A stretch of 35,006 nt of DNA from a virus (IMGVR_UViG_2778261448_000009:1-35006), one strand, 5' to 3'; shown: positions 5,522-28,779, counted from the stretch's first letter. The notes: generated by a model not told the origin, from the sequence alone. Numbers and translations are program-made.

Positions 5522-5606
5522 ACAACCCCCTTTAATTAATACCCGTATTTATCAAAATATCAACAATTTAATAAATACCTTCATATTTCGTAATGAGGGT
5601 AATTAC

Positions 5607-8088: not shown

Positions 8089-9600
8089 ATGTTTAATCTT
8101 TTTCGACGCAAAAAGGCGGTAGAAACTCCAGTTAAAACTAATCACCGCCAGCAACAACAAAAAATCTTTATCGACAAACAAGTAGAAAAATTCCAGAAAG
8201 ATTTGTCTAAGCGTTCTTTGGGCTTAGTCGGTGATCGTATTGATGGATCACTTCAACAAGACACCATTACAGGAACCTTCAATAAGGCTCTCAAATCAAA
8301 CGGTAAGCGCCTTTATGATCAGGGTCGTACTCTGGCCTTAAACACTTCCGTAGGCAGTCGCTACACGCAATACATCACCGATATGGTGGTAGGTACTGGC
8401 CTAGATCCGAAGCCATCAATCGTTAAATCAAATGGCAAACTTGATAGCGCACTGAATAAGCAGATCGAGAATGCTTTCTGGAAGTGGGCGCAGAACGCTA
8501 AACGCTTCTCTCGCAATGGTCGCTTTAACTTCCGTGAACTGCTGGTAATGGCTGAACGTGAGCGCGTTATGGGTGGTGAGTGCTTCATCGTTTTAACCAA
8601 AGAAAACAATGAGTTAAATGTTTCCATCCTGTCTGCTGATAAGTGCGACTGGTCGCTAAACCGTGAAGTAAGCAAAGAACGTGCTATCTATCAGGGGATC
8701 GAGTATGACGTAGAAACAATGAAGCCAGTAGCATACTGGTTTCGTAAAATCAACCTACTGACTCAGACTTACACAGGTGATAACTATCGCGTAGATGCAT
8801 CGCAAGTATGCCATTATTATCAACCACTTACAGCCGAATCCCTGCGTGGTGTGACTGACTTCCTGCCAGTGATCAAGGATATCGCACATCAAGACGCATT
8901 CCGCGAAACTGCAATTATCCAGAAACGTATTGCGGCTAGTTCTATGGGCTTTATCGAACGTCCGAAAGATTCTGGTGACGATTTTGATACTGGTGAAGAG
9001 GATGAACAATATCAAGCGCCGGAAGTAGTACAGGATTTTGCACCTGGTACTATTCAGGAATTACCGGAAGGGGCAACGATCAAGAGCATCCAGGCGACGC
9101 AAAGCGGTGATGACTTCAATTCCTTTAACGATGCGATGTTTACTAGCGTATCAATGGGCTTAGGCGTGTTTAAACAGGGCTTAACTGGCGATACTAGCCA
9201 AATAAATTACAGCGCTGCACGCTACGGCGAATTACTTCAAAGAACGCGCGTTAAAGCACTGCAAAACAAATTGATTGAAACAGTGGTGTCGCCCATTTTC
9301 GAAGCATATCTACGCCATTATTCCGCGCGTGGTATTGTTCCGATTCGTATTACTGCAATTCCACATATTATCGATAATACAACTATTATTCGTCCGCGTT
9401 TTGAATCCGTCGATCCATTTAAAGACGTAAGCGCCGAGATTGCTTTAATTGATAAAGGACTTAAATCACGTACTGCCGTTATTCTTGAACGTGGTGATGA
9501 TCCTGAAAAAGTATTCTCAGAGATTCAAGCCGAAAAGAGCGCACTAAATATTATCGTTAATGGCGAGGGTGAAGAAAAAAATTCCCCAGCCGATCCCTAA
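8089..9600 (+). CDS. portal protein, 503 aa
   Basis: Position immediately after terminase and before the protease-capsid gene; size typical of lambda-family portals; acidic C-terminal tail. Confidence 0.7.
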   Translation: MFNLFRRKKAVETPVKTNHRQQQQKIFIDKQVEKFQKDLSKRSLGLVGDRIDGSLQQDTITGTFNKALKSNGKRLYDQGRTLALNTSVGSRYTQYITDMVVGTGLDPKPSIVKSNGKLDSALNKQIENAFWKWAQNAKRFSRNGRFNFRELLVMAERERVMGGECFIVLTKENNELNVSILSADKCDWSLNREVSKERAIYQGIEYDVETMKPVAYWFRKINLLTQTYTGDNYRVDASQVCHYYQPLTAESLRGVTDFLPVIKDIAHQDAFRETAIIQKRIAASSMGFIERPKDSGDDFDTGEEDEQYQAPEVVQDFAPGTIQELPEGATIKSIQATQSGDDFNSFNDAMFTSVSMGLGVFKQGLTGDTSQINYSAARYGELLQRTRVKALQNKLIETVVSPIFEAYLRHYSARGIVPIRITAIPHIIDNTTIIRPRFESVDPFKDVSAEIALIDKGLKSRTAVILERGDDPEKVFSEIQAEKSALNIIVNGEGEEKNSPADP

Positions 9601-9645: not shown

Positions 9646-11658
9646 ATGCTTAAATTTCGCCGCGATCTTAACGGTTACGGTGGAGTTATTAACGAAGGGC
9701 ATAACGATCAATACGAGTTTGAAATTGCTTTCTCAAGTACACAGCCTTATCAGCGCCAATTTTGGGATGAGCAAAATCAAGAAATGGTGGTATTAGATGA
9801 AATTCTGGTACATACACCGGAAGCGGTTGATCTGTCTCGTCTGAATAATAACGCTCCGTTGCTGTTCAATCATAATTTCGATAATCATATTGGTGTCGTT
9901 TGTAACGCTCGAATCGATGCGGATAACGTAGGTCGTGCTCTGGTTAGATTCTCTAAGCATGGCACTTTGGCTAATGATATTCGCAATAAAGTCATTGAAG
10001 GTACGATGGAAAAAATTTCTGTCGGTTATGACATTAAAGAATATCACATCGACTACACCAAAGGACAACTGATTGTTACTAAGTGGGCACCCTATGAACT
10101 CTCATTTGTCACCGTTCCCGCAGACGATACGGTCGGTTTAAATCGCTCTCTAAATACTATCACAGTTAATTTGGAGGCTAAACGCGATATGACTAAAGAA
10201 CAAATTGAAGAAATCAAAGAAGAACAAGAATCCGCTCAGGTTGAAGAAACTCCGGTAGAAGAAAATAAAGAACCGGAAGTTGAAGAAACTCAAGAGCGCC
10301 AAGTTGAAGAGAATAAAGAAGATGAAAATCTCGAAGACGGAAAAGACGCTAAACATCCTGAAAGTGTTGATGATGATAGTTCAACTGTTCGGGAAACAGA
10401 AGAAGTAAAAGAAGAACGTGAAGCTGCTCCGGTTGAAGAAGAAAAAATCGAGGAAGTGGCTGAACGTTCCGAAGAAGACGAATTAGAAATTCGCGAAATT
10501 GCACGCGAGTTAAATATTAACGAAGACGATGAAGAATTTAAACGCGCATTGGCAAATAAAGAAATTACGCCGGAAGCATTCCGCACTAAGGCACTAAATA
10601 AAATCGCTACTGCTCAACGTAACAACGAACAACAAATTAAGGACTCTAAAATGGAAAAAACTTTTGACCTGAACAACGTAATTCGCTCTCTGGTAGATGG
10701 TGCTGCTCTGGGCGCTCATGAAGCTGAATATTCCGCTATGGCTGCTGGTGCTGCAATGCAGCGTGGTCGTGCTGCTCGCGGTGGCTCTGTATTCGTTCCG
10801 GCTGCTGCTATGCGTGCTGCTTCTGCTGGTAACACCAAAGCCGACCTGACCGCTATCACTGACGAAAAACTGATGACTGAATCCTACATCGAAATGCTGA
10901 TGCCGGAATCTGTTCTGGGTCGTCTGGGTGTGACTGTTTACAGTGGCTTGAACTCCCCGACCGCTATTCCAAAAATGACTAAATCCAGCGTTGACGCTTT
11001 CGGCTTCGTTGATGAAAACGGTGCTGCACCGGAAAGCAAAGCTGAATTTGCGAACGTGAAACTGTCTCCGAAAACTTTTGCTGGTGGCAACCCGATCAGC
11101 CGTCAGTCGCTGAAAACCGTTCCGGGCATCGCTACCCTGATCACTGATCACATTAACAAAGCTGTTCGCATCAAACTGGAACAACTGATTCTGTCTGATA
11201 AAGCTAACGACCGTGGTCCGGCTGGTCTGGTTAAGCAACTGGTAGACGCTAGCCGCGTTACCAAGAAAGCTGCTTTCTCTTACAAAGACTTCCTGAAAGA
11301 AATTGCAGCACTGACCGACGCTGGCGTTCCTGCTCAGGCGATCAAGTTTGCGATGAGCGGTGCAACTGCTTCTGAACTGGAATCTACCCTGAAAGATAAC
11401 GGCGTTTCCGGTTATATCATCGAAAACGGCAAACTGGCTGGTTACGAAGTAGTTACTTCTGGCGTTATCCCGGCAGACCACATCGTTCTGGGTGACTTCT
11501 CCGGTATTACTATCGGTGAGTGGGGAGGTCTGGAACTCGACATGGATCTAACTACATATAGGGATCGTGGTGCGGTAGTGCCTCGTATCTTTGTAGATTT
11601 GGACTACGTTGTAGCACAGCCGGAAGCTCTGAAAGTTCTTCACATCTCCGCTGAATGA
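9646..11658 (+). CDS. prohead protease (HK97 gp4-like) - acidic scaffold - major capsid protein, single 670-aa ORF
   Basis: N-terminal LLFNHNFDNHIG, ISVGY and YELSFVTVPA resemble HK97 protease motifs ALFNHD, SFAF and FDVSPVTYPA as I recall them. Residues about 185-300 are E-rich and repetitive. The C-terminal 330 aa have capsid-like composition. TGA stop. Confidence 0.7.
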   Translation: MLKFRRDLNGYGGVINEGHNDQYEFEIAFSSTQPYQRQFWDEQNQEMVVLDEILVHTPEAVDLSRLNNNAPLLFNHNFDNHIGVVCNARIDADNVGRALVRFSKHGTLANDIRNKVIEGTMEKISVGYDIKEYHIDYTKGQLIVTKWAPYELSFVTVPADDTVGLNRSLNTITVNLEAKRDMTKEQIEEIKEEQESAQVEETPVEENKEPEVEETQERQVEENKEDENLEDGKDAKHPESVDDDSSTVRETEEVKEEREAAPVEEEKIEEVAERSEEDELEIREIARELNINEDDEEFKRALANKEITPEAFRTKALNKIATAQRNNEQQIKDSKMEKTFDLNNVIRSLVDGAALGAHEAEYSAMAAGAAMQRGRAARGGSVFVPAAAMRAASAGNTKADLTAITDEKLMTESYIEMLMPESVLGRLGVTVYSGLNSPTAIPKMTKSSVDAFGFVDENGAAPESKAEFANVKLSPKTFAGGNPISRQSLKTVPGIATLITDHINKAVRIKLEQLILSDKANDRGPAGLVKQLVDASRVTKKAAFSYKDFLKEIAALTDAGVPAQAIKFAMSGATASELESTLKDNGVSGYIIENGKLAGYEVVTSGVIPADHIVLGDFSGITIGEWGGLELDMDLTTYRDRGAVVPRIFVDLDYVVAQPEALKVLHISAE

Positions 11659-13428: not shown

Positions 13429-16400
13429 ATGCAATCAATCCAATTTAAACGCACACAGACGGCTGGTAAAAAGCCGACGCCGGAACAATTATCACAGGGT
13501 GAAATCGCCTTACAGTTGGCGGATCATGTGATTTACACCAAAGACAAAAATAATAACGTAGTCCAAATTAGTGTTTCTCCAGAAAAACACGCTGAACTGA
13601 ATACGAAAGTAGACACCAACAAGGTCAATACAGATAAAGTCATTTCAGCAAATAAAACCGAAGCCGCTAATAATCTGGCTAGTGCTAAAGCTGAACTGAA
13701 TCAGACTATCACTTCTACCCGTGATACTCTCAATGCTTCAATCACTGCTGGCGATACCGCAGCCAACAAACGAATTGATGCTTTGACTACCACAGTAGGT
13801 AACAATAAAACCGAAGCGGCTAACGCTCTGGCGGCTGCTAAGACTGAACTGAATCAGACTATTACTTCAACCCGCGATACTATCAACGCGACAATTAACA
13901 AGAACAAGACAGATATTAATGCGCGAGTTGATCAGACGAATACCAACGTTACCAACTTAACGAATACTGTCGCAGCAAATAAATCAGCAATAGAAAAGAC
14001 GGTAGCGGATAATAAGAAAGATGCGGACACGAAGATCACCAATCTTACTAGTACGGTCTCTGCGAATAAGACGGCCATTGAAAGAACTGTTGCAAATAAC
14101 AAGGCCAGTGCCGATGCCGCAATTGCCGCAGCTAATCAGCGAATTGATTCGATTGAAGGTAGTGCCGATGCTGCTTACATCAAGAAGAATACCAACACTT
14201 ACCATCACGGCTATCTGTTAACCAAAACAGCTAACTATTTGGAAGACCAGACAGCGAGAGATCTTAACTACTTTGGTGCTTTCCGTACCAATGGTCAAGA
14301 TGGACTCATGGATCTAACTCTTAACGTTCCTCACTCTGCCGGCAAAGCGCACGGTCGCGGATTTACTTTCCGTTATGCGTCTGGTGGATCTCGTGTTGAA
14401 ACCTATGGTTTTGATAGAGAAGGACAGAAGAACTTTAGCTATAAGATGTATCACGAAGGTGATAAGCCGACTCCTGGCGAGATTGGTGCATACACCAAAG
14501 CCGAAGTTGATAAGATGTTTGTTAAAAACGTCGTTATGTCTGTTCCCAATTCTAGCGAAAACGTATCTGCATATTTCAAATTGGCAACCGCAACAATTCC
14601 ACAAAACGGGCGTAGTGTGTTTTTCCGTATTCATGGTGGTAATGGTTACAACGTTACGGCATATGACCAAGTTGATGTAGTAGAAATTCTTCTCCGTAGT
14701 GGTAACGATAGACCTAAAGGTCTTAACGTAATTGCATACCGTAGAAATACAAACAAAGATTTTGAGGTATTTGCTGTCAATACTTCCGGTGATAACTATG
14801 ATATCTACGTGAAATATCAGCGTTATACCGATAACGTTATTGTCGAATATGGGAAATCTGTTTATGTAAGTTTGACGGTTTATGATACGCCGGAAGCCAC
14901 GTTAATTAAACCTTCCGTTGGTGTTATCGGTGGTCGCAACGTAACTCTTTTTAACACAGAAAATAAACGTGGTGTGTTGAGTTTTGACGATAACACACAA
15001 AATAGTTATGATATTGTTCACTTGAGTAATGATAGGGGTACTGGTCGGAAATATATTCGTAAATTCCGTAGCAACTATAACGAAATGATCTGGCATGAGA
15101 CGGTTCAAGGTTCTACTTATCGACTCGCCACGGGTAGTACAGATTCTCAGGAGATTCTATCCGTTGAATCTAGTAGCTCTATTGCTGGGACTCATAAAGG
15201 TAATATTCTTTCTGGTCGAATGATGTTGGGTGGCGGTAGTAATGTTATTACCTTGCGGCGTCCTGCTGGTCAATCCAACCATATTGCGTTTCAAGATAAT
15301 CGGACTGGAGATATTACCCGTCAAGGGTGGATCGGTTATGGTAATGCTGATACTAACGTTTTTGAATGGTATAGTGATGTAGGTGGTACTTCTATTCGTC
15401 ACCACATAGACGGACAGATCGAATTTCAGACAGGTAACACAAAACGAGTTTATACTAACGCTCAATTCATCTCAATGAATAGCGACGCCTACCGCATGAT
15501 CTACGGTAATTATGGTGCATTCTGGCGTAATGACGGCAATAAAGTTTATCTTCTTTCTACTGCCGAAAATGATAAATTGGGCGGATGGAATGGAAACAGA
15601 CCGTTCATTTACGATTTGACTAACGGTAAAGTTACTTTAGGCGGTGATGGTAACGAAGGTGCATTAGTTCTTGAAAGAGATAGCCGTGCTGCCCGTTTTA
15701 GCAACAATGTATTCTTAGAAAAAGGACTGCTTACTTTCTCTGCTGGTGGAAATCAGTCGATGGATTCTTTTACGATTAACCATTGGGGGAATAGTAATGC
15801 CAATCGATATAACGTTTTGCAATTCCAGGACACTAGCGGAACTCACTTTACTACAGAACGTAACGGTACTGGTGGCTTACTTGCTCATTTCCGAGGGGAT
15901 TTAACTACCGAAGGAAAATTAACGTGGGGCAAAAATACAGCTACTTCTAGCTTTAATATCCGTGCGTGGGGTGCTGATGCTCGTAAACAAGTATTCGAAT
16001 GTGCGGACGAAAGCGGTTGGCACTGGTACACACAACGACCGGGCGGTCCGGGTACTGAATTAATCGAGTTTGCCATCAACGGTACTGTTAAACCTAAAGC
16101 AATTCACACTGGCGGTAATATCACGCTTAACGGTGCTGATATTGAGTTTCGTCGCAGTGGCAATAAGCATTTGTGGTTTAGAGATCCAAATGGCTTAGAA
16201 TTGGGTCTGTTGTACTGCGATGATGCTGGCGTTATGCGTATGCGCGGTGAGAAACAAACCGAAGTCTGGAAATTCGGCGGTAAGATGATTCACCTTGAAA
16301 CGGGCACTGTATCCGGTGGCGGTAATGGTCTTATTCGTGGTAGCGTTGCTGGTGGTAGTTGGGCTAGCTGGCGTGATCGTGCTTCTGGTATTCAGGTCGA

Positions 16401-16965
16401 TTGTCAACAATCAACCGATTCCGCTCATAACGTATGGAAAGCAACCCATCAAGGTAAATATCATATCGCAGCAATGGGTGTACATGTTCCTAGCGGTACT
16501 ATCGGTAACGCTACAGTTAAACTTCATGTTCATGACGCTGGTTTTGACTTTAACGCTGCTGGTGACTTTACCGCAGGTCGTAACGGTTCGTTTAACGATG
16601 TTTACATTCGCTCTGACTCCCGTTTGAAGATTAACAAGGAAGAATTACAGGACGGTGCATTAGAGAAAGTAAACTCCCTGAAAGTATACTCTTACGATAA
16701 AGTTAAATCTCTTTCCGATGACACAGTGATTAAACGCGAAGTAGGTATTATTGCTCAGGATCTGGAAAAAGTATTACCGGAAGCAGTAGGTATTCAATCC
16801 ACCGAAGATCCAGAACATCCAGAAGCAATCAAGACTATTTCTAACTCTGCTGTCAATGCTTTAATCATCAAAGCAATGCAGGAAATGACCGCTAAGTTTG
16901 ATGCTATGGCTAAAGAACTTGCCGAAACTAAAGCTGAATTAGCCGAACTGAAAGCAACTAAATAA
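13429..16965 (+). CDS. side tail fibre, 1178 aa, with C-terminal intramolecular chaperone (peptidase S74-like) domain
   Basis: N-terminus MQSIQFKRTQTAGKKPTPEQLSQGEIALQLADHVIY; tandem about 50-aa repeats (NKTEAAN-LA-AK-ELNQTITSTRDT) at nt about 13650-13900; C-terminal SDSRLKINKEELQDG...VGIIAQDLEKVLPEAV followed by a coiled coil, as in self-cleaving fibre chaperone domains. Confidence 0.75.
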   Translation: MQSIQFKRTQTAGKKPTPEQLSQGEIALQLADHVIYTKDKNNNVVQISVSPEKHAELNTKVDTNKVNTDKVISANKTEAANNLASAKAELNQTITSTRDTLNASITAGDTAANKRIDALTTTVGNNKTEAANALAAAKTELNQTITSTRDTINATINKNKTDINARVDQTNTNVTNLTNTVAANKSAIEKTVADNKKDADTKITNLTSTVSANKTAIERTVANNKASADAAIAAANQRIDSIEGSADAAYIKKNTNTYHHGYLLTKTANYLEDQTARDLNYFGAFRTNGQDGLMDLTLNVPHSAGKAHGRGFTFRYASGGSRVETYGFDREGQKNFSYKMYHEGDKPTPGEIGAYTKAEVDKMFVKNVVMSVPNSSENVSAYFKLATATIPQNGRSVFFRIHGGNGYNVTAYDQVDVVEILLRSGNDRPKGLNVIAYRRNTNKDFEVFAVNTSGDNYDIYVKYQRYTDNVIVEYGKSVYVSLTVYDTPEATLIKPSVGVIGGRNVTLFNTENKRGVLSFDDNTQNSYDIVHLSNDRGTGRKYIRKFRSNYNEMIWHETVQGSTYRLATGSTDSQEILSVESSSSIAGTHKGNILSGRMMLGGGSNVITLRRPAGQSNHIAFQDNRTGDITRQGWIGYGNADTNVFEWYSDVGGTSIRHHIDGQIEFQTGNTKRVYTNAQFISMNSDAYRMIYGNYGAFWRNDGNKVYLLSTAENDKLGGWNGNRPFIYDLTNGKVTLGGDGNEGALVLERDSRAARFSNNVFLEKGLLTFSAGGNQSMDSFTINHWGNSNANRYNVLQFQDTSGTHFTTERNGTGGLLAHFRGDLTTEGKLTWGKNTATSSFNIRAWGADARKQVFECADESGWHWYTQRPGGPGTELIEFAINGTVKPKAIHTGGNITLNGADIEFRRSGNKHLWFRDPNGLELGLLYCDDAGVMRMRGEKQTEVWKFGGKMIHLETGTVSGGGNGLIRGSVAGGSWASWRDRASGIQVDCQQSTDSAHNVWKATHQGKYHIAAMGVHVPSGTIGNATVKLHVHDAGFDFNAAGDFTAGRNGSFNDVYIRSDSRLKINKEELQDGALEKVNSLKVYSYDKVKSLSDDTVIKREVGIIAQDLEKVLPEAVGIQSTEDPEHPEAIKTISNSAVNALIIKAMQEMTAKFDAMAKELAETKAELAELKATK

Positions 16966-17021: not shown

Positions 17022-17495
17022 ATGTCTCAACAATTCAAAGATATTTTTACTGGTGGTTTGGTAAGTCTGTTCTATCACGCTGATACCACTAACACCGATC
17101 TTGCTGATGAAGCATACGAAGAAATTAAAGAGTGTGCTGGTTTTCCTGAAACTGGTATCGAGCGCGGTACTGTAGAAGTTAAATCCTTCTCTTCTCAGTA
17201 TAACCGTAAACTGGTAGGGAAGCTGAACGTTCCTGATCTGACTCTGACCGTTAACTACATCCCAGGCGATGCGGTACATGAAAAACTGATCAAAGCTGCC
17301 GAAGACGGTACTCGTATTCAGATTAAAGTAGAATATTACGTTGACGCAGCAAAACAGACTGGTATTCGCACCGCTTTCAACGGCTTCATTTCTAAAGTTG
17401 CTATGAACGGTGGCGATGAAGAAGTTGTAACCAAAGAGTTTACCTTTGCTGTTGATGGTGCTCCGCTGAAACAGCAAATCTTCACTGCCGGATGA
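17022..17495 (+). CDS. major tail tube protein, gpV N-domain-like, 157 aa
   Basis: DLTLTVNYIPGD, EDGTRIQIKVEY, FNGFISKVA and TKEFTFAV parallel lambda gpV [32 protein letters not shown] and TRTVKVTNV as I recall them; RBS AAGGGGTAATT; strong terminator downstream; TGA stop. Confidence 0.65.
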   Translation: MSQQFKDIFTGGLVSLFYHADTTNTDLADEAYEEIKECAGFPETGIERGTVEVKSFSSQYNRKLVGKLNVPDLTLTVNYIPGDAVHEKLIKAAEDGTRIQIKVEYYVDAAKQTGIRTAFNGFISKVAMNGGDEEVVTKEFTFAVDGAPLKQQIFTAG

Positions 17496-17663: not shown

Positions 17664-18170
17664 ATGGCGAATGTCGTTAATAAGCCTGGCTGGGTCGGGT
17701 CATCTGCTGTTTCTGTAACTGGTCAACGATGGATGAGCGCAGCAATGAACGCATTAAAGGTTAGTCGCCCAGCTAACATGAGTGCGATGTGTGGTCGTGG
17801 TATGGATACGGTTGTAGCTACTGCTGCGTGGACTACTTCATTGGGTAATAACTGGGGTGTAACTGCTTCAAACTATCCAGTAACTGACATGCGCGGTAAA
17901 GGATCTATGGAGAACCCCGAAAACGTGGGCGTAGGGCGTCTGATTGGCGTTATCGTTGGTCAATTCAATGGTGGTACTCCTACTATGGCTGTATATCTCC
18001 AGAACGGTAGAGCGGGGAATATAACCGTTAATTTGGGTGGTGCTGCTGTCACTGTTCCTTATAACAGTATGCAAAGTGGTTTTCATTACTATTGGTTAAG
18101 CAATCCTCCGGCTGCTTTCCTAACAAATATTAAGAAGGCTGGCACTAAGCAGACTTTGAAAATCTCTTAA
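17664..18170 (+). CDS. hypothetical structural protein, 168 aa
   Basis: RBS GGAG before the ATG; sits between the tube and chaperone genes; Gly/Thr/Val-rich, beta-rich composition; no family recognised. Confidence 0.4.
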   Translation: MANVVNKPGWVGSSAVSVTGQRWMSAAMNALKVSRPANMSAMCGRGMDTVVATAAWTTSLGNNWGVTASNYPVTDMRGKGSMENPENVGVGRLIGVIVGQFNGGTPTMAVYLQNGRAGNITVNLGGAAVTVPYNSMQSGFHYYWLSNPPAAFLTNIKKAGTKQTLKIS

Positions 18171-18215: not shown

Positions 18216-18524
18216 ATGAATCTGAATGAAATGCTGAAAGCTCTTTCTCCGAAACGTGAATCTTTAACCCTCGGCGGATTTACGTTCTATGCTCGCCCTA
18301 TGTCGGTGCAAGAATTTAATGAACATGTTTTCAATACTGATAAAAAAGACCGTGATGAACGCTCTATTCTTCGTTGTATTGAAGATGAAGACGGTAAGCC
18401 AGTATTTGAATCTATTGAACAAGTTAAGGCACTGTATACTAGCGTCCGCAGTGAATTAATCGGCTTAGTTGCTCAAGCATCATTGATGAAAGATGCGGCG
18501 GTAATTGAAAACGAGGTAAAGTAA
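18216..18524 (+). CDS. tail assembly chaperone, gpG-like, 102 aa
   Basis: Immediately upstream of the tape measure gene; RBS GAGGAA; followed by a -1 frame ORF with no RBS of its own. Confidence 0.6.
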   Translation: MNLNEMLKALSPKRESLTLGGFTFYARPMSVQEFNEHVFNTDKKDRDERSILRCIEDEDGKPVFESIEQVKALYTSVRSELIGLVAQASLMKDAAVIENEVK

Positions 18525-18910: not shown

Positions 18911-21265
18911 ATGACAAAACATATAGTAACAATAGAAGGGGATAATAAAGGTCTAAGGAGAAGTACCAATCAGGCGATAGAGATGCTTGATAACCTTTCA
19001 GAAAGGGCAATGAATCTTGATTTGTCTGGTGGTTTATCTAGTTTAAGTGGAACCCTTCGCGGAACTGGTGGATCGCTTGCTTTGGCTGCTGGTGGTTTTG
19101 TTGGTTTGGCTGCTGGCGCTATTTCTGCTGCAAATGCCATCGGTGATTATGTAAAGGAATACAGCGAAGTTTCAAAAGCAACTGGTTTAACCGTCGAAAC
19201 ACTCCAGAAATTAGAGAAGCAATTCTCCGGTACTGGCTTAACCGTTGAGAAATTTGGTGATATTAACAAAGACACCTTAGATAAGCTGGCTGATGCATGG
19301 CGTAACGGTGGCGGTATTGAAGACGACCTAGAAAGTGTAGGTTTGAAGATTAAAGATTATGCCGAGTTTATGAACGATCCACAAGGCGGGATGAAAGCGG
19401 CGATCAAGGTCTTCTATGATATGCGCAAGGCTGGTGCGTCTATCGCTGATGTTAAGTTTATGATGGAATCGTTAGCCAGTGATTCAAGTCATATGGCTGA
19501 TGAATTGCAGAAATACGGATCTTATCAGGAAGCTGTAAACGCCATTAATCAGCAAACTGTTAAAATCACCAATGACACAGCCGAAGAATATAATAAATTC
19601 TCTAAAAATATGGATACCCTTACCGATAACTTAAAGGGTATGGCTGCAAATGCACTAAATCCAGTTGTTGAAGGGATGAATAATCTTTACAACTGGTTTG
19701 ATAAAGATTGGGAAAAGACCGCTTTATTCAACGCATTAAAGACTTTTAATGAAAGGTTTGAAAAAGCTCGCCAGAATATGGCTATGGCTAACGGTGGTTT
19801 TATTAACAAGCATGGTTATAGTTCTACTGGTCTAGCGGGTGGACAAGCCAGCTTCAACAATAAACCAAATTATCCTGATCGTTGGGTGGATAGTGAAGGC
19901 GTTACCCGTGATAAAAACGGTGATCCGGTAATTACTATCACTGGAAATAAATCGGATACCGGATTTACCCCAACGGGTCAAGGTGGAGGCGTCACCGGAC
20001 CATCGAAAAAAGAACAAGAAGAAGCCAAGAAGAAAGCGGAAGAGGCAGCTAAAAAGGCTAAGGAAGCCGCAGAAAAAGCACAGAAAGCACGCGAGGATGC
20101 AATCAAGCGACTGAATGCTCTTGATGTTAAATTGCAAGGACAGACAGCCGCGTCTATTGCTTCTCAAAACAAGCAGTTAGAAGCCAGCTTGAAAGATTTA
20201 GACACTGCTTTAGATATGGGCTTAATCTCTCAGCAAGACGCAGCCGCTAAACGTCAGCAACTGTTAGATCAGAACGCAGAAAACATCTATAAAATGATGT
20301 TGGGTGCTGATCCGATTGATGCTCTGAATGCCTTAACAGTTTTGCAACAAATCAGGGACAACGAGCTAGAAAGCCATAAACGGTTACTTGATGGTAAAGC
20401 TATCTCCTACGAAGAATATATGCGTCGTGTGAATGATACCGAGCAAAACTATTCTCAGATTGATAGTCAGTTACAGGGAATGGATGGTTTTAAAACCAAT
20501 CAATTGACTAATAGCTTAGACTATCAGGATTCAAATAACCCGTTTGCTAAATTTAATGCAATCGATCAAGAGAAATCGGAAGCTGAACAAGATTATAAGA
20601 CCGAAAAACTCAATATTGATGGTATTAATGATCCAGCTAAACGGATGGCTGCATTAGAAAAACTCAATGAAAACCATCAAAAACGGATGGCTGCAATTGA
20701 AAAGAAATATGCTGATGCTCGCCAGTCAATAGCCGATGATATGTATGGCGGTTTTGCTGCTGCAATGACTCTCTTCGGGCAGGAAAACACTAAAGCTATG
20801 CAGATGGCTTTCAATGCTCATAAAGCATTCTCCATTGGACAAGCGACGGTGAACATGTGGACGGCTGCTACCGATGCATGGAACGATCCGACCAACGTAA
20901 CCACAGGACAAAAGATCGCTGCTGCTGCATTGGCTGTTTCTCAGAACATGGGGAACATCGCAAACATCAAGTCTACTAACGTTAGCGGTATGGCTCATGA
21001 TGGTATCGATAATATCCCTCGTGAGGGTACATGGTTGCTTGATAAGGGTGAACGAGTAGTTGATCAGCGTACTAACGGTGATTTGAAAGACTTCCTTGCT
21101 GCTCAAAAATCAGGCGGTGGCAACTCTCAGCCGATTGAAGTTAACGCACCTTTGAACATTAACGGCAACGTTAATAGCTCAGACAAGATGGTCATGGATG
21201 CTATCAAACGTCACGCTAAGTTAGTTGCTCAGGCGGTAGAAGACGCACAACGCCGTAAGATGTAA
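18911..21265 (+). CDS. tail tape measure protein, 784 aa
   Basis: Position after G/GT; long helical Ala/Lys/Glu-rich repeats (KKEQEEAKKKAEEAAKKAKEAAEKAQKARE); Gly-rich N-terminal segment. Confidence 0.8.
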   Translation: MTKHIVTIEGDNKGLRRSTNQAIEMLDNLSERAMNLDLSGGLSSLSGTLRGTGGSLALAAGGFVGLAAGAISAANAIGDYVKEYSEVSKATGLTVETLQKLEKQFSGTGLTVEKFGDINKDTLDKLADAWRNGGGIEDDLESVGLKIKDYAEFMNDPQGGMKAAIKVFYDMRKAGASIADVKFMMESLASDSSHMADELQKYGSYQEAVNAINQQTVKITNDTAEEYNKFSKNMDTLTDNLKGMAANALNPVVEGMNNLYNWFDKDWEKTALFNALKTFNERFEKARQNMAMANGGFINKHGYSSTGLAGGQASFNNKPNYPDRWVDSEGVTRDKNGDPVITITGNKSDTGFTPTGQGGGVTGPSKKEQEEAKKKAEEAAKKAKEAAEKAQKAREDAIKRLNALDVKLQGQTAASIASQNKQLEASLKDLDTALDMGLISQQDAAAKRQQLLDQNAENIYKMMLGADPIDALNALTVLQQIRDNELESHKRLLDGKAISYEEYMRRVNDTEQNYSQIDSQLQGMDGFKTNQLTNSLDYQDSNNPFAKFNAIDQEKSEAEQDYKTEKLNIDGINDPAKRMAALEKLNENHQKRMAAIEKKYADARQSIADDMYGGFAAAMTLFGQENTKAMQMAFNAHKAFSIGQATVNMWTAATDAWNDPTNVTTGQKIAAAALAVSQNMGNIANIKSTNVSGMAHDGIDNIPREGTWLLDKGERVVDQRTNGDLKDFLAAQKSGGGNSQPIEVNAPLNINGNVNSSDKMVMDAIKRHAKLVAQAVEDAQRRKM

Positions 21266-21270
21266 TTAAA

Positions 21271-21315
21271 AGCCCCCATAGTCATAAATAATCATAAAAC
21301 TATGGGGGCTTTTCT
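21271..21315 (+). terminator. long hairpin after the tape measure gene whose 3' arm contains the Shine-Dalgarno of the next gene
   Basis: 11-bp perfect stem AGCCCCCATAG/CTATGGGGGCT with an 18-nt loop, then TTTTCT, then ATG at 21316; GGGGG at 21304-21308 lies in the stem. Confidence 0.5.
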
Positions 21316-21876
21316 ATGTTCAAATCCAAGAATATTAAAATCACAGATTTTACTCTTAAATCAAAACAACCTTTCTTCAAGGCGCAATCTATCTCCGGTA
21401 AGTTCCAGCGTCGCTTTACTGGCATCCATTTTTACGAAGCAGAATTTACCGCGAATTACATGGCTCAGGATATTAACGAAGTAAAAGAATTTGTAGCACG
21501 TCACCTTTTTGGTCGTCCTTTTAGTGTGCCACTGTCTTACTTTTCAAAATATACAGGTGATGTACGCCAGATGGTTACGGCTGCTGCTGGTACTGCTCGC
21601 GGTGGGCGCAAGGTAAGACTCTCCAACTTCACCGGAACACTGAAAGCGGGAACTATCATCCAGTTTGAGAACCACAAGAAAATCTACACGATCACCGAAG
21701 ACGTGAAATCAGGTGGTGAAATGAAACTCTTCCCTAACTTGCGCCAAAACGTCCTAGCGGGTGAGGTGATCAAGTATCAGAACGTAGAGGGCGAATTTCT
21801 TCTCAAAACAGAAAACATCGATTGGAAGATCGCCCAGATTGGCAAGATGAAATTCGAATTAGTGGAGAATGTATAA
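21316..21876 (+). CDS. minor tail protein (lambda gpM position), 186 aa
   Basis: Synteny after the tape measure gene; TAA stop overlaps the next ATG (TAATG). Confidence 0.5.
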   Translation: MFKSKNIKITDFTLKSKQPFFKAQSISGKFQRRFTGIHFYEAEFTANYMAQDINEVKEFVARHLFGRPFSVPLSYFSKYTGDVRQMVTAAAGTARGGRKVRLSNFTGTLKAGTIIQFENHKKIYTITEDVKSGGEMKLFPNLRQNVLAGEVIKYQNVEGEFLLKTENIDWKIAQIGKMKFELVENV

Positions 21877-22575: not shown

Positions 22576-22995
22576 ATGCTAAAAACTAGGCTTATCACCG
22601 ATTACATCAATTCTTTAATAGGTCAGGAGTTCGTTCAAGGTGAGAATGATTGCAATCTAATTGCATGTAAGATCATCGATATTCTCGCTGGTACTGACCT
22701 ATATAATTCTCTTTATAAAAAATATTCAACTAAAGAAGAAGGCTTGAAAATCTGCAAAGAATTAAGCGGGTATTCAAATATCCTTCAACCAATTAAGAAA
22801 CATTTCAAATTAGTCACTGATGATTTACAGGACGGCGACTTACTGGTCACAGCCCACAAATTAGGAAACCGTAATTATTATTCCGTAGTTCCTCATTATT
22901 CCGGTTATGGCCTCGTTGAAGAAGATGGTATCTGGATGACCATTCCTGTTTCAGACATTGACTATGAACAAGTTTATAGATTCGGGGGTGAATAA
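22576..22995 (+). CDS. tail tip assembly protein, NlpC/P60-like (lambda gpK C-terminal-domain-like), about 139 aa
   Basis: GENDCNLIAC and DLQDGDLLV parallel lambda gpK GVTDCYTL and AQPGDVLLC as I recall them; GGAGG 8 nt before the ATG at 22576, which is in frame with the longer track ORF 22420-22995. Confidence 0.5.
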   Translation: MLKTRLITDYINSLIGQEFVQGENDCNLIACKIIDILAGTDLYNSLYKKYSTKEEGLKICKELSGYSNILQPIKKHFKLVTDDLQDGDLLVTAHKLGNRNYYSVVPHYSGYGLVEEDGIWMTIPVSDIDYEQVYRFGGE

Positions 22996-25900
22996 TGGGA
23001 TTTGAAGTATTGGTAGGCGCGGTTATTGCTGGTGCTTCGGCGGGGATGGCGGCAGCCGCAACATTTTCGGTTATGACCGCAGTCGCTATCGGTATGGCTG
23101 CTGGTGCAATGACCTTGATCGCTTCCACTGTAGGCGCACCAAAAACACCGAAAGTACAAAGCCCGGATAATGCGGTGACACTAGGAACATCAAACGATCC
23201 TAAGACAGTATTACCCGTTCTTTTTGGTACTACCCGCACGGGTGCAATCTGCGTTTATAAGGCAATTTCCAAGCAAGAAAACAATAAGTTAGTGCAAATC
23301 TTCGCAATTGCCGAGGGTGAAATCGACCATTACAAAGCACTGTTTATCGATAACAAAAATGTTCTTGTTGGTAAGAACATGACGATCCGTGATGGTGTAC
23401 TGGACAAAGGCAACATTAAAGAAGAATATCGGAAAGTCTTAGAAGTTGAGTTCCGCACTGGTAAGAATCCTAACACCGCTTTGTCACTGGCAAAACGTCA
23501 TTTAGGATCAGACTGGAACGACAACTACAAAGGCAATGGTATTGCAACCATGTGTATTGTTTTACGCCGTGATGATAAATCTCTTGCTGCTGGTGTTGAT
23601 ATTCTCCAGCCAAATAGCCAGGTAGCGGTAGACGTTTGCGGCCTTAAAATTCGTAACCTTGAAACCAATGCTATTGAGGCTAGCACTAACGGCGTGGATC
23701 AGATTTTCCACTACCTAACAAATGAAAAATATGGCTTATCCGTACCAATTGAAAACATCAACGTTGATTCATTCCTGAAAGTACGTAAACAAGTACGCCA
23801 GATGGACCTACATTCAAACGGGGCATGTGATCCGAACGCCAGCTTTAAAGAGAACTTGACTAGCCTTATGCAGACTTTCGGCGGGGTGATGTTCGAATCC
23901 TTTGGACGTATTACCCTGAAACTGGATGCTCCTGATATTGTTAAGCATACCTTCAATGAAGACAATATTATGATGGGGAAAGTATCACTGAAAACAGGTG
24001 GCACTAACGGTTATTTCAATACCATTAACGCGATGTATCAGGAACCATCAATCGACTATTCCGAGCAAATGCTACGTTATCCGGCTGATGCTGAAAACGA
24101 TGCTACTATTCGTCAAGATGGTCGAATTATCGCTAAAGATATTGAATATCGTTTTGTTAAGTCTAAAGACCAGATTGATAAACTTGCGAGCATTGAACGA
24201 AATAAATCTCGTATCACTCAGGTTATCAGCTTTATGACTACTGACGCATTCACTGCCGAAGTTTGGGACGTTATCAGCGTAACCTATGATGAATTGAAGC
24301 TGAATAATTCCTTATGGCGTATTACTGCAATTGATCGCTCGATTGATTCTGGTATTGCTGGGATGATGACTATCACCGCCACAGAATATAATTCTCAGGT
24401 TTATACTGACCTGAACTATGCGGCAACTCCAGACAATAGACCAAGTGGTTTACCGGATTCAATGACAGTACAGAAGCCTACTAATTTCAGGATTAAGGCA
24501 ACTGGTGAGACGATTTACGGTAAAAACGTTACTTTGACATGGGATGCACCGGAAGATTTTAACCGTTATGGTTTCCAGATTGATTACCGTGTAAGTGGAT
24601 CGCCTAACTGGATTAAGCTGGGACAGACTTCACAGCAAATTTTCAGTGTCAATGCACTGGCTAAAGATCGCTCTTATGATTACCGAGTTTGTGCTTTCGG
24701 TATCATCGCTCGATCCGATTGGGTAGAACTGATTAACCAGAATCCTACTGTTACCTATGAATTGCCGACTCCGGTTATTCGAATCAAAAATCAGGGTAGC
24801 ACGCCAGGAACTTTCGAAGGTAATGATCTGATTATCGAATGGGAAAATCAGCAACAATTAGATGTTGAGATCAACGGTGAAACTAACAAGTTTAGTGACC
24901 TGTTTGAAGCATACATTATCAAGGTGACTAACAAGGCTGGTAAGTCTATTCAGTACCGTACCCGCGATCCTGAATCATGGACTTATACGCTTGATATGAA
25001 CCAGTTTAACGGCCTTTCGCGTCAACTGACGGTAGAAGTATCGGCTAAGGGCTATAACAACTCAGAGAGCGCCCCAGCGCGTTTAGTGGCTATCAACCCA
25101 CAACATAAGCCAATGAAAGGTTTTAGTGCGCGTGGTGGCTTTAATAGTGTGTTTGTTAGCTGGGCAGATGACGTAGAACATGATTATGCAGGGTCAATCA
25201 TCCAGTATGCAACCGATAACACTTTCTCCGATGCAAGGGCAGTAAGCACGAATAGTGTTAGCCATACTTCCTTTGATATTGCTGACGGTGATTATTATAT
25301 CCGTGGTGCTCACTACGATATTTTCGGTATGGATGATGCTGTTTGGTCTGAACCGTATTTCATGCAAATGAAATCTACCATTAGCTGGGACGATCAGGAC
25401 AAAGAAGCACTGGAAGACCTGATTGGTTTACAAGACCGCTTAGATGAAACTATCGCGGATGCTATTGCTCAAGCTGGCGCTAATGCCGATGCTAAAATTG
25501 ATGCAATGCATAAGCAAATCACTACCGAAACAGGGCAGACGGTCCAAGCCTCAGCCAATACCTTAAAGAGTCTGATTGCTACCAGCGAGCAAGCTAGCTC
25601 CACTAAGATTGATCAGGTTAAAGCTGAACTGAAAGGCGATATTAAGTCCGAAGTCAGCGCATCTGCTACTACCCTGAAACAAGCAATTGCTACCAGTGAG
25701 GCAGCAAGCGCAAGCAAGATTGATCAAGTTCGGGTAGAAATGGATGGCAAGATTGCTGGTGTGAATCAGGAAGCAGATGTAAAAATCGATGCTTTGAAGG
25801 GAACCATTAACAGCAAATATAATCTGGCGGTTAATGCAGATGGTCGCGTGGCTGGTATTCACATGAGCGCAACCAACGATCCGGCACAACCGACGAGAAT

Positions 25901-26771
25901 CATCTTTAATGCTGATAAAATCGCGGTAGCTCCACAGAACGGATCGGAAGTATGCCCGTTTGGTATCGAAGGTAACAAGGTTTATCTCGATAATGCGATG
26001 ATTCGTAATGCTGCAATTGGTACAGCCCAGATTAATGATGCGGCGATTACCACGGCTAAAATCGGCAATGCTGCAATTAACAGCGCGAAGATTCAGGACG
26101 GGGCAATCACTAACGCGAAGATCGTAAACGGTGCAATTGATAACGCTAAAATCGGTAACTATATCCAGTCTTCCAACTGGAACGGATCGACCGGATGGCA
26201 TATCAACAAGAACGGGTCCGCTACGTTCATGAATGCAACCGTTAAAGGTAATATCACGGCTGATTCTGGTACTCTGAACAACGTCACGATTAACTCTAGC
26301 TGTGTTATTAAGGGTATGCTCGAAGCTACTCAGGTTAAGGGTGATTTCGTTAAGGTGATTGGACGTAAGTTCCCGCATCGTGATGTTAACGTTGATAATG
26401 GTTATGCTGGTTATCCACAGGGAACGGTCACTGTTCGCGTTGAAGATGATCACAAGTTCGATCGTCAAATCGTTATTCCGGCAATTAGTTTTGGTGGATT
26501 GCGAGCGCGTGAAGGGTCGAACAATAATACGTTTTACGACACCTGTCGCCTGATTGTTCGTAAGAATGGGTCAGAGTTGTATAATAGGGCGTATGGCGGT
26601 AATACTGGTCTTTACTCAGGTGTTATTGATATGCCAGCGGGTAAAGGTGCTGTGACCTTGACCTTTGAAGTGCAATCAAGCGCAATCAACAACTGGACGC
26701 CTAGCACATGGATCAGTGATTTAACGGTAATGGTAACTAAAAAAGCCACTACTGGTATTACTGTTTCTTAA
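22995..26771 (+). CDS. central tail fibre / host specificity protein (lambda gpJ-like) with a gpI-C-terminal-like N-terminal segment, 1258 aa
   Basis: N-terminal Gly/Ala-rich hydrophobic segment plus TVLPVLFGTTRTGAICVY resembles the lambda gpI C-terminus (GNVLPVLYGEMRVGSRVV). C-terminal VTVRVEDDHKFDRQIVIPA, IDMPAGKGAVTLTFEV and LTVMVTKKATTGITVS parallel lambda J VTVTDDHPFDRQIVVLP, VDMPAGRGNVILTFTL and VQVMVIKKQALGISVV. Internal ATSEQASSTKIDQV and NAAI/KIGN repeats. Confidence 0.8.
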   Translation: MGFEVLVGAVIAGASAGMAAAATFSVMTAVAIGMAAGAMTLIASTVGAPKTPKVQSPDNAVTLGTSNDPKTVLPVLFGTTRTGAICVYKAISKQENNKLVQIFAIAEGEIDHYKALFIDNKNVLVGKNMTIRDGVLDKGNIKEEYRKVLEVEFRTGKNPNTALSLAKRHLGSDWNDNYKGNGIATMCIVLRRDDKSLAAGVDILQPNSQVAVDVCGLKIRNLETNAIEASTNGVDQIFHYLTNEKYGLSVPIENINVDSFLKVRKQVRQMDLHSNGACDPNASFKENLTSLMQTFGGVMFESFGRITLKLDAPDIVKHTFNEDNIMMGKVSLKTGGTNGYFNTINAMYQEPSIDYSEQMLRYPADAENDATIRQDGRIIAKDIEYRFVKSKDQIDKLASIERNKSRITQVISFMTTDAFTAEVWDVISVTYDELKLNNSLWRITAIDRSIDSGIAGMMTITATEYNSQVYTDLNYAATPDNRPSGLPDSMTVQKPTNFRIKATGETIYGKNVTLTWDAPEDFNRYGFQIDYRVSGSPNWIKLGQTSQQIFSVNALAKDRSYDYRVCAFGIIARSDWVELINQNPTVTYELPTPVIRIKNQGSTPGTFEGNDLIIEWENQQQLDVEINGETNKFSDLFEAYIIKVTNKAGKSIQYRTRDPESWTYTLDMNQFNGLSRQLTVEVSAKGYNNSESAPARLVAINPQHKPMKGFSARGGFNSVFVSWADDVEHDYAGSIIQYATDNTFSDARAVSTNSVSHTSFDIADGDYYIRGAHYDIFGMDDAVWSEPYFMQMKSTISWDDQDKEALEDLIGLQDRLDETIADAIAQAGANADAKIDAMHKQITTETGQTVQASANTLKSLIATSEQASSTKIDQVKAELKGDIKSEVSASATTLKQAIATSEAASASKIDQVRVEMDGKIAGVNQEADVKIDALKGTINSKYNLAVNADGRVAGIHMSATNDPAQPTRIIFNADKIAVAPQNGSEVCPFGIEGNKVYLDNAMIRNAAIGTAQINDAAITTAKIGNAAINSAKIQDGAITNAKIVNGAIDNAKIGNYIQSSNWNGSTGWHINKNGSATFMNATVKGNITADSGTLNNVTINSSCVIKGMLEATQVKGDFVKVIGRKFPHRDVNVDNGYAGYPQGTVTVRVEDDHKFDRQIVIPAISFGGLRAREGSNNNTFYDTCRLIVRKNGSELYNRAYGGNTGLYSGVIDMPAGKGAVTLTFEVQSSAINNWTPSTWISDLTVMVTKKATTGITVS

Positions 26772-28030: not shown

Positions 28031-28068
28031 TCCATAAATACCCTCATAGAATCTTATGGGGGTATAAC

Positions 28069-28416
28069 ATGGCTAAAAATATTTTCACTGAATTTCCTAC
28101 TTATCCGGTCGATCAGCTTTCCGGTATTTTTATTAATGGCATTAGCCCAGAATCCATGACACATGATTTTGAGGCGAAGAGAGTTAAACATAAACAATAT
28201 AAAGAATGTATCCGCGATCATGAAAAAGGGACCGTGTTTTGTGTCGCTACATTGGCTAAACGTCCTAAGTATCGTTTTCGTGTAGGACAAGAAGTTGATG
28301 TGGTTAATCCTTATAGCTTTAACTGTCTGGGTGATGCACGCGCGGTGTGTGTAGGCACTGCTCCTTATTATATCAAGGGTATGCGCTTTATTGGTTATAT
28401 CTTCGAAATGATCTAA
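28069..28416 (+). CDS. hypothetical protein, 115 aa
   Basis: RBS GGGGG before the ATG; no family recognised. Confidence 0.5.
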   Translation: MAKNIFTEFPTYPVDQLSGIFINGISPESMTHDFEAKRVKHKQYKECIRDHEKGTVFCVATLAKRPKYRFRVGQEVDVVNPYSFNCLGDARAVCVGTAPYYIKGMRFIGYIFEMI

Positions 28417-28425
28417 GGGGGTAAT

Positions 28426-28779
28426 ATGTTAAGCAAACATTTTTCTCGCAAGGAATTTAAATGTAAATGCGGAAAATGTGATTATGATACAATCGACGCT
28501 GAATTACTGGTAATTCTTGAGGATGTACGAGAGCACTTCGGTAAACCAGTGATTATTAACAGTGGCAACCGTTGCCCGACTCATAACAAGAATGTAGGCG
28601 GTGCAACCAACAGCTATCACGTTCGAGGCCGTGCGGCTGACATTGTGATCAAGGGTGTCTCCCCTGATATTGTCCATGCTTATCTTGATGGGAAATACCC
28701 TACTCAATACGGCTTAGGCAAATATAAAACCTTTACGCATATCGATTCCAGATCGAAAAAATCACGATGGAATGGATAA
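28426..28779 (+). CDS. endolysin candidate, peptidase M15-like zinc peptidase, 117 aa
   Basis: SRKEFKCKCGKC...NSGNRCPTHN..VGGATNSYHVRGRAADI...FTHIDSR gives an H...D...H metal-ligand pattern as in M15-type phage peptidoglycan peptidases; terminator follows. Confidence 0.65.
   Translation: MLSKHFSRKEFKCKCGKCDYDTIDAELLVILEDVREHFGKPVIINSGNRCPTHNKNVGGATNSYHVRGRAADIVIKGVSPDIVHAYLDGKYPTQYGLGKYKTFTHIDSRSKKSRWNG

Follow-up and report, generated by a model that had tools for sequence, protein, structure and literature searches.

Late transcripts of bacteriophage T4 start a few nucleotides past their promoter box. At the genes e, soc, 49 and I-TevI, the long transcripts made early fold so that the ribosome-binding site is masked, and the late transcripts start inside the fold (PMC3014915); T4 uses this masked design for lysis genes and for homing endonucleases, examples being e, I-TevI and mobE (PMC3014915). 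The consensus of the T4 late promoter is TATAAATA, and NATAAATA is the form found in cyanophages (PMC3014915, PMC2984593). Translational coupling by RNA unfolding is also established, for genes VII and IX of f1 and for the coat-lysis and coat-replicase pairs of MS2 (PMC12548453, PMC4538824), and structure located directly after a stop codon can hinder such coupling (PMC12548453). Lastly, a reporter series based on lambda tR2 showed that translation of a gene largely silences a terminator lying near its stop codon (PMC4824070). Here we describe a hairpin between two tail genes of a temperate prophage that can be compared with each of these systems, and that probably separates two late transcription units, in the style of the T4 lysozyme gene, rather than mainly coupling the translation of its neighbors.

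The window, that is, the whole stretch of 35,006 nucleotides that was analysed, represents a temperate E. coli/Salmonella prophage of about 35 kb with a long late region on the plus strand. The genes that frame the locus are:

5607-7511, plus strand: terminase, at the head of the late operon
8089-9600, plus strand: portal
9646-11658, plus strand: protease-capsid fusion
13429-16965, plus strand: T4-like tail fibre
17022-17495, plus strand: major tail protein
17664-18170, plus strand: gp38-like adhesin
18216-18524, plus strand: tail chaperone
18911-21265, plus strand: tape measure protein (TMP), 784 aa, stop codon TAA at 21263-21265
21316-21876, plus strand: distal tail protein (Dit, T5 pb9-like), 186 aa, ATG at 21316
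from 21876, plus strand: baseplate hub
among the tail-tip block, plus strand: DUF6950 gene
22995-26771, plus strand: J-like tip protein
28426-28779, plus strand: endolysin
minus strand: helicase and serine recombinase

The tail-tip block consists of Dit, the hub, the DUF6950 gene and the J-like gene, Dit being the first. The gene identities proposed in the initial annotation, a tape measure and a distal tail protein, hold: TMP matched phrog_13674 (E = 5e-71) together with 11 other PHROG families, mostly of the tape-measure type, Dit matched phrog_1302 (distal tail protein; E = 1.8e-16), with PF21430 found on Dit homologues, and the TMP stop and the Dit start are identical in the NCBI/RefSeq annotation of the E. 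coli relatives. Of 5426 complete E. coli genomes, 56 carry the prophage, among them those of strains UTAK-14, ETEC1739 and KSC64; it also occurs in 32 near-identical IMG/VR prophage contigs and in Salmonella assemblies. Among deposited phages, the 2 kb around the site gave no match in a megablast search of 50,697 phage records, and a protein search of phages retrieved one distant match only, DCP80. A search of the literature yielded nothing on this prophage family, nor on TATAAATA boxes in temperate siphoviruses.

The 50 nt that separate the TMP stop from the Dit start contain an inverted repeat of 15 perfectly matched base pairs (21268-21282 / 21299-21313) that encloses a loop of 16 nt, 46 nt overall. 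Its base lies 2 nt past the TMP stop and its end 2 nt ahead of the Dit ATG, and this stem is the longest perfect inverted repeat anywhere in the window. The 11-bp stem that had been described earlier, 6 nt from the TMP stop (21271-21265 = 6) and 6 nt from the Dit ATG (21316-21310 = 6), was confirmed as part of this longer one. The parts of the hairpin are:

21268-21282, plus strand: full 5' arm, AAAAGCCCCCATAGT; its C-run (21273-77) pairs with the Shine-Dalgarno sequence
21271-21281, plus strand: 11-bp core of the 5' arm as first described, AGCCCCCATAG
21283-21298, plus strand: A/U-rich loop of 16 nt, CATAAATAATCATAAA
21283-21290, plus strand: CATAAATA box of the NATAAATA type, a putative -10-like promoter element
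21299-21313, plus strand: full 3' arm, ACTATGGGGGCTTTT
21300-21310, plus strand: 11-bp core of the 3' arm as first described, CTATGGGGGCT
21304-21308, plus strand: Shine-Dalgarno GGGGG of Dit, 7 nt before the ATG, paired at 5/5 positions
21310-21315, plus strand: U-tract TTTTCT, doubling as the spacer between Shine-Dalgarno and ATG; its first four T pair with AAAA at 21268-71

The minimum free energy (MFE) of the hairpin was -26.5 kcal/mol (81 nt; z = -6.4), a stability equalled by 0/200 shuffled sequences, and in a 301-nt context it was still present in both the MFE and the centroid structures. An inner helix of 4-6 bp (TGAT/ATCA, TTGAT/ATCAA) tightens the loop in most relatives; it is missing from the hairpin of the window and from that of the relative L050. 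None of the Rfam covariance models identified a family matching the hairpin, the best hit having E = 1.2, far below gathering scores.

An analysis of 13 distinct variants of this junction from E. coli and Salmonella, whose Dit proteins are 68-100% identical, revealed the hairpin in 13/13, with the Shine-Dalgarno sequence paired and fold energies from -17 to -27 kcal/mol. Several changes are compensatory. In L052 and L058, CCCCC/GGGGG has become CCTCC/GGAGG; in Salmonella lineages a G-C pair at the base of the stem is replaced by A-U or U-A; and a further series runs from CATAG/CTATG through CTAG/CTAG to CTTGG/CTAAG. One-sided C-to-T changes were also found, and these give G.U pairs, which are possible on plus-strand RNA only. 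In a covariance-model alignment 99% of the cells were paired and 10 of the 15 pairs showed changes on both sides, although such an alignment is biased towards structure and the both-sided count is inflated by register shifts. Among the relatives the U-tract varies in length between four and five T. Because pairing is kept by double changes, and by G.U pairs that form only on plus-strand RNA, the pattern of substitution indicates that the hairpin is a selected RNA structure and that masking of the Dit Shine-Dalgarno sequence is a conserved property of the clade. In one of the relatives, L014, the end of an IS1 element adjoins the 5' arm.

Outside this clade the arrangement changes. L040 (56% identity) and L038, which is the DCP80 phage record (43%), carry a small hairpin after TMP that leaves the Shine-Dalgarno sequence free, and no properly placed box was found before Dit in either of them. 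In L134, L137 and L140 the Shine-Dalgarno sequence is masked by a separate hairpin that is not of the terminator type.

The Shine-Dalgarno sequence of Dit is typical of the prophage both in the strength of its duplex with the anti-Shine-Dalgarno (-8.4 kcal/mol) and in its spacing (7 nt), GGGG(G) or GGGG(G)U being the standard ribosome-binding motif across the genes of this element. It had been proposed that GGGGG at 21304-08 is the sole Shine-Dalgarno sequence of the gene and that the stem sequesters it; this was borne out, since no other purine-rich run precedes the ATG, the stem pairs every one of the five G, and opening positions -18 to +6 around the Dit ATG requires 27.7 kcal/mol, the maximum of the window. 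For about 30 other gene starts the opening energy ranged from 3.5 to 18.7 kcal/mol, and 2324 positions sampled across the window gave a mean of 9.0, a 99th percentile of 18.6 and a maximum of 26.2 kcal/mol, this last value belonging to the same hairpin. All opening energies were obtained by direct constrained folding; an RNAplfold-style sliding-window profile was discarded, as its values were inconsistent with direct folding. Together, the hairpin and the masking of the Shine-Dalgarno sequence are far beyond chance, and de novo initiation at Dit should be essentially blocked on any RNA that carries both arms.

Masking depends on where the RNA begins. With a 5' end at or before 21266, opening of the Dit site required 24-27 kcal/mol. 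With a 5' end at 21294-21300, that is, 6 nt past the box and with the 5' arm absent, it required 5.4 kcal/mol, an ordinary value for the starts of this phage. The same displacement of the 5' end to 6 nt past the box lowered the opening energy of the masked relatives from 12-33 to 4-6 kcal/mol.

The loop also holds a conserved sequence. In a multiple alignment of the 13 hairpin variants, ATAAATA is invariant in the loop (13/13) and the remaining loop varies. Within the window, an ATAAATA ending 24-34 nt before the start codon precedes 7 of 29 genes; shuffling the upstream regions 2000 times gave an expectation of 0.30 and never more than 4. The boxed starts are 5521 (minus strand), 5607 (terminase), 18216 (chaperone), 21316 (Dit), 28069, 31024 and 34429 (minus strand). 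A scan for a sigma-70 consensus promoter before the terminase gene found none. We then extended the scan to 42 unique regions upstream of Dit, all from distant relatives at 33-63% identity: TAAATA ended 18-36 nt before the Dit start in 38/42 (1.1 in shuffles), and the full ATAAATA did so in 24/42 (0.36 in shuffles). The usual order in these relatives is the TMP stop, a terminator hairpin with its T-tract, a T, C or A followed by ATAAATA, 20-33 nt, and the ATG, and the box is often exactly TATAAATA. It is in the clade of the window and in L099 that the box is located inside the hairpin loop. The 11-mer TTGATAAATAC showed no enrichment in the window (18 matches vs 19.5 expected), and the information in these scans comes from the core heptamer and its placement alone. 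Judged by its recurrence, the box is a family-wide element that lies at the head of the tail-tip unit, where a promoter might be expected.

We interpret the box as a -10-like promoter element of the T4 late type, with a putative start near 21296-21299; alternatively, its role might be in the RNA, as an A/U-rich leader element. For sigma-70 it would be a poor -10 element, having TAAATA without a T at -7 and no -35, and the consensus scan was negative. AATAAT at 21287-92 was considered as a sigma-70 promoter inside the hairpin and was rejected, as it lacks a usable -35 and the Salmonella variants do not keep it.

These observations led us to a model to which we give about even confidence: a terminator-like hairpin would silence Dit on read-through RNA, and an internal promoter would make the RNA from which Dit can be translated. 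Read-through RNA coming from TMP would carry both arms, and its stem would pair the whole Dit Shine-Dalgarno sequence. The hairpin itself may work as a weak terminator, its score being marginal, or as a 3'-end stabiliser of the chaperone-TMP transcript. Transcripts driven by the box would start about 6 nt past it, near 21296-21299, keeping the 3' arm and lacking the 5' arm; on such RNA the Shine-Dalgarno sequence would be free, so that Dit could be translated. We infer these last two steps from position, conservation and folding. As a secondary and lineage-specific route, ribosomes terminating at the TMP stop might open the stem and suppress termination. Several points count against this model: there is no obvious reason to silence Dit on read-through RNA, no gp55- or gp33-like match was found, the box makes a poor sigma-70 -10 element, and L040 and L038 are exceptions.

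The closest parallel is with the T4 genes e, soc, 49 and I-TevI. As in T4, transcripts from upstream keep the Shine-Dalgarno sequence in a stable helix; a box of the TATAAATA type is found either within this structure or at its 5' strand, so that transcripts started at the box would lack the masking arm (here at the level of sequence); and about 25 nt separate the box from the ATG. In contrast to T4 and the other T-even phages, the carrier is a temperate prophage of about 35 kb that encodes a serine recombinase and a siphovirus tail tip that is T5/RcGTA-like; the masked gene encodes a structural tail protein; and the box reads CATAAATA or GATAAATA, not TATAAATA. Moreover, the hairpin has a terminator-like U-tract and begins 2 nt past the upstream stop; in its 46 nt it joins the layout of a terminator, a mask of the ribosome-binding site and, within the loop, a putative promoter box. 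Homologues of gp55, the late sigma, or of the co-activator gp33 were not found among the ORFs of the window in searches against PHROGs, Pfam and PDB sequences. Because this defining sigma was sought and not found, the element is best described as an analogue of the T4 class and not as an assignable member of it.

The initial annotation had instead tied Dit to TMP translation, proposing that a ribosome terminating at the TMP stop melts the stem. In its strict form, this explanation holds that Dit is translated only from polycistronic RNA, ribosomes terminating on TMP melting the stem and suppressing the terminator, so that RNA unfolding frees the Shine-Dalgarno sequence and the amount of Dit made follows the translation of TMP. 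Siphovirus tails need few copies of either protein, in similar numbers, which would suit such a link. Since a stem of about -25 kcal/mol will not open on its own, something must open it actively, and in the window the TMP stop is separated from the stem base by 2 nt and from the C-run by 7 nt; at this distance terminating ribosomes could open the stem and suppress termination. When a ribosome holding the TMP stop codon in its A site was modelled by forcing the nucleotides up to 9-12 past the stop to be single-stranded, the opening energy of the Dit site fell from about 24-27 to 14.6 kcal/mol (9 nt held) and to 6.5 kcal/mol (12 nt held), and a similar fall, to 6.5-15 kcal/mol, was obtained for L042 and L048, whose stems also begin 2 nt past the stop. 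There is ample precedent in the RNA-unfolding coupling documented for f1 VII/IX and MS2 (PMC12548453), as well as in the repression by ribosomes of terminators located a few bp past a stop codon (PMC4824070).

However, the spacing between stop and stem is not kept. In L039, L044, L054 and L050 the stem begins 8-12 nt past the stop, and both the hairpin and the masked Shine-Dalgarno sequence are retained; in the three of them for which the ribosome was modelled, masking largely persisted, 20-22 kcal/mol remaining in L044 and L050, and 12.8 kcal/mol in L039, a figure that comes from a mis-set start codon. Since these sister lineages keep the masking at such gaps, coupling by terminating ribosomes is unlikely to be the conserved reason for it. 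A Shine-Dalgarno-masking hairpin of the same kind in L010 lies 22 nt from the upstream stop, which excludes melting by the ribosome. In addition, relatives in which Dit is divergent from its neighbor have no upstream cistron and still carry the Shine-Dalgarno sequence in an inverted repeat, post-stop structure correlates negatively with coupling in published work (PMC12548453), and the invariant ATAAATA box is left without explanation. The comparison with f1 and MS2 is likewise divided: in both cases a helix with one strand near the end of the upstream cistron silences the downstream ribosome-binding site, and a translating or terminating ribosome could open it, but here no part of the masking strand falls within the upstream ORF (it lies 2-16 nt past the stop), the spacing varies among relatives, and stop and start are 50 nt apart. 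Thus melting by the ribosome stands as a physically plausible route in the window and would leave most of the masking in the sister lineages, and coupling as the main or conserved mechanism appears somewhat unlikely.

Two other ideas were discarded. Read-through of the TMP stop into the hairpin (the frame is open from 21266 to 21484) meets an in-frame UAG within the 3' arm in Salmonella and is shifted in frame by the T4/T5 variation of the U-tract, and a mini-ORF that crosses the 5' arm in L050 (AUG AAU AAA UAC CCC CUU GGU UGA) is absent from the other lineages.

[quoted passage not shown] Its layout agrees with this: an A-tract and a GC stem (GCCCCC...GGGGGC) are followed by UUUUCUAU, the U-tract reading UUUUUCU or UAUUUUUAU in relatives. 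Similar hairpins follow other late genes (11751-72, 17620-44, 26790-823 and 28784-806), the terminator at 985-1016 has the same base as the TMP-Dit hairpin, AAAAGCCxCC...GGxGGCTTTT, and distant relatives carry an ordinary terminator at the TMP-Dit junction. As a terminator, however, the hairpin is marginal. On a d'Aubenton-Carafa-type score it reached d = 1.6 and its relatives -13 to +17.5, whereas two clear terminators, one following the major tail gene and one closing the operon, scored 34.6 and 24.1; because the loop measures 16-18 nt the score stays low, and a consensus scan allowing loops of 3-8 nt did not call the hairpin of the window, with its loop of 16 nt. The resemblance to the lambda tR2 series (PMC4824070) is of the same mixed nature: there is a GC-rich stem with a U-tract starting 2-5 nt past a stop, while the loop, at 16-18 nt, exceeds the 3-8 nt that are usual, the score is marginal, and the U-tract is also the spacer between Shine-Dalgarno and ATG. 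The attenuating terminator of the initial annotation has the layout of one and a marginal score.

The overlap cannot be neutral, because a masked Shine-Dalgarno sequence without relief would abolish translation of an essential tail gene. Compensatory changes keep the masking across lineages, and in L134, L137 and L140 the masking is found again, in a separate hairpin that is not a terminator. For these reasons we consider an incidental overlap to be quite improbable.

Processing by RNase III or another nuclease, whose cleavage in the long stem would separate the TMP and Dit mRNAs and free the Shine-Dalgarno sequence as in the lambda N leader or the T7 intercistronic sites, would supply the active unmasking step that is required, and with the inner helix of most relatives the bulged duplex reaches about 19-20 bp; nevertheless, the window has 15 bp, the inner helix is missing there and in L050, the sequence gives no evidence of RNase III recognition, and neither the conserved box nor its presence where the long stem is absent is explained, which makes this reading highly improbable. 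We attach an equally slight probability to a DNA-level site, either a palindrome bound as an operator by a dimeric regulator or a site of recombination or cruciform formation, in which apparent covariation would be symmetric change of half-sites: a conserved central box enclosed by a perfect palindrome, the inverted repeat between two start codons in relatives with divergent genes and the IS1 end in L014 would fit it, but the 14-15 bp arms vary freely in sequence while pairing persists, the one-sided C-to-T changes tolerated as G.U matter for RNA and not for a symmetric protein site, and RNA functions account for the content of the arms (Shine-Dalgarno and U-tract).

If the model of a masked read-through RNA and a nested promoter is right, 46 nt insulate adjacent tail-gene units both transcriptionally and translationally: transcripts from upstream would end or stay silent for Dit, and the nested promoter would give the translatable message. 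The hairpin might then be of use as a synthetic insulator part, and a regulatory logic of the lytic T-even phages would extend to a common, uncharacterised family of temperate prophages of E. coli and Salmonella. For annotation, a terminator combined with a masked ribosome-binding site need not imply translational coupling.

A broader and more tentative proposal, which we regard as unlikely, is that a widespread family of temperate siphovirus-like prophages of Enterobacteriaceae, of 28-38 kb, run their late genes by a T4-style grammar without recognisable gp55 or gp33, this grammar consisting of terminator hairpins, NATAAATA boxes and hairpins that mask ribosome-binding sites and are escaped only by box-initiated transcripts. 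Were this true, an unrecognised late sigma or activator would be encoded among the small unknown ORFs, for example 2562-3011, 3132-3464 or 4916-5521 (minus strand), or else expression would rely on the late machinery of a co-infecting T-even phage, and the TMP-Dit hairpin would represent a minimal three-in-one insulator (terminator, promoter and translational mask) of 46 nt.

The same arrangement was found at other genes. Directly before the endolysin, gene 28069 has a box at 28034-40 and, right after it, a 12-bp hairpin (AUACCCUCAUAG / UUAUGGGGGUAU) in which the GGGGG of the gene is masked. At 18.7 kcal/mol this gene ranks second among all genes in opening energy, and an RNA beginning at the predicted start would need about 5 kcal/mol. 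In L010, a homing-endonuclease-like gene with three NUMOD3 motifs has been inserted after the hub gene, and it is preceded by a hairpin of -23.5 kcal/mol with AATAAATA in its 5' arm and the Shine-Dalgarno sequence in its 3' arm. A gene beside the endolysin and a homing-endonuclease-like insert belong to the same gene classes in which T4 employs the masked design.

The window contains a second masked ribosome site, at 28034-28069, immediately before a gene that neighbours the endolysin. Its elements are as follows:

28034-40, ATAAATA box, directly 5' of the hairpin
28038-28064, 12-bp hairpin with arms AUACCCUCAUAG/UUAUGGGGGUAU
28069-28416, gene for a 115-aa unknown protein, adjoining the endolysin on its upstream side

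The Shine-Dalgarno (SD) GGGGG of gene 28069-28416 is paired within the hairpin, and the computed opening energy at its start, 18.7 kcal/mol, ranks second among all genes; setting the RNA 5' end at 28046 lowers this computed value to about 5. Among the E. coli relatives checked, the 28034-28069 region showed no sequence differences, so covariation is unavailable for this hairpin.

The same elements accompany a gene that is an insertion in a close relative (L010, 4234-4291). There, the hub gene and the DUF6950 gene are separated by a 256-aa homing-endonuclease-like gene, which carries three NUMOD3 motifs and whose product has a GIY-YIG/Seg-like appearance at its N-terminus. In front of this insert stands a hairpin of -23.5 kcal/mol, located 22 nt past the upstream stop, whose 5' arm carries AATAAATA and whose 3' arm carries the SD GAGGG. 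This arrangement of hairpin, box and SD is that of T4 I-TevI and mobE.

A further organization was found in a set of prophages (L033-L037, L045-L047, L059 and L103-L112), with distal tail protein (Dit) sequences 41-50% identical. These carry the Dit-hub pair alone, with a lysozyme gene divergent to it, and the start-to-start spacer of 50-57 bp is an inverted repeat, which in L037 reaches 18 bp of perfect match. As every arm combines the SD of one gene with a [C/T]ATAAATA box that faces the opposite way, the spacer suggests two crossed divergent promoter/RBS units.

Related boxes are present elsewhere in the window. Two ATAAATAC boxes, inverted relative to each other (GTATTTATCAAAATATCAACAATTTAATAAATAC), occupy 5545-5578 between the divergent genes 5521(-) and terminase 5607(+), each 24-29 nt upstream of its respective start codon; a sigma-70 consensus promoter is absent from this interval. 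The pair probably represents divergent promoters heading the late region. Three more elements, together with a gene of possible regulatory function, were recognized at the left end:

943-951, TATAAATAC box
985-1016, strong bidirectional terminator hairpin, 34 nt past the box
1661-1689, minus strand, sigma-70 promoter matching the consensus perfectly (TTGACA, 17 nt, TATAAT, with TG), reading leftwards
2562-3011, gene for an unknown 149-aa protein

Since there is no ORF between the 943-951 box and the terminator, the two may delimit a small RNA unit, roughly 60-70 nt long. This terminator and the hairpin between the tape measure protein gene (TMP) and Dit have a common base, AAAAGCCxCC...GGxGGCTTTT. 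The minus-strand promoter probably serves as the principal promoter of the early or immunity region. As for the 149-aa protein, its C-terminal region is very acidic (final residues …DEQDEDDDYTPICFSSHGGFYGYDEGLDML) and resembles clamp-binding peptides, e.g. those of T4 gp33, gp55 and gp43; the protein is a candidate late co-activator, although no match in the databases supports this role.

Among deposited phages, a Dit homologue (43% identity) is present only in Escherichia phage DCP80 (L038; PQ671644.1, 10905-23462), a 141-kb record filed under Tevenvirinae and classed as T-even. Its block is syntenic, resembling chaperone, TMP, Dit, hub and J, and TATAAATA occurs after terminator hairpins, upstream of neighbouring genes. 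A siphovirus-type tail-tip module in a T4-like myovirus record is odd; it could reflect true mosaicism, or else a fault in assembly or classification.

The TMP-Dit junction itself varies among relatives. Between prophages that are nearly identical in other respects, homopolymer runs of the hairpin (window 21273-21277, 21304-21308 and 21310-21313, compared with L009, L010, L012 and L022) have different lengths (C4/C5/C6, G5/G6, T4/T5), shifting stem stability over about -17 to -25 kcal/mol; either noise from sequencing or genuine tuning could account for this variation. In L014 (IMGVR_UViG_2690316210_000001, 1-96) the TMP 3' end is replaced by IS1, whose end (…CAGTAAGTTGGCAGCATCACC) adjoins the hairpin 5' arm, the insertion point being exactly the junction A-tract. 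In a Salmonella relative (L039, GCA_019946875.1, 3995-4003) ATC stands at the usual Dit ATG and the deposited gene call begins there; an in-frame ATG 6 nt upstream of it is the more likely start.
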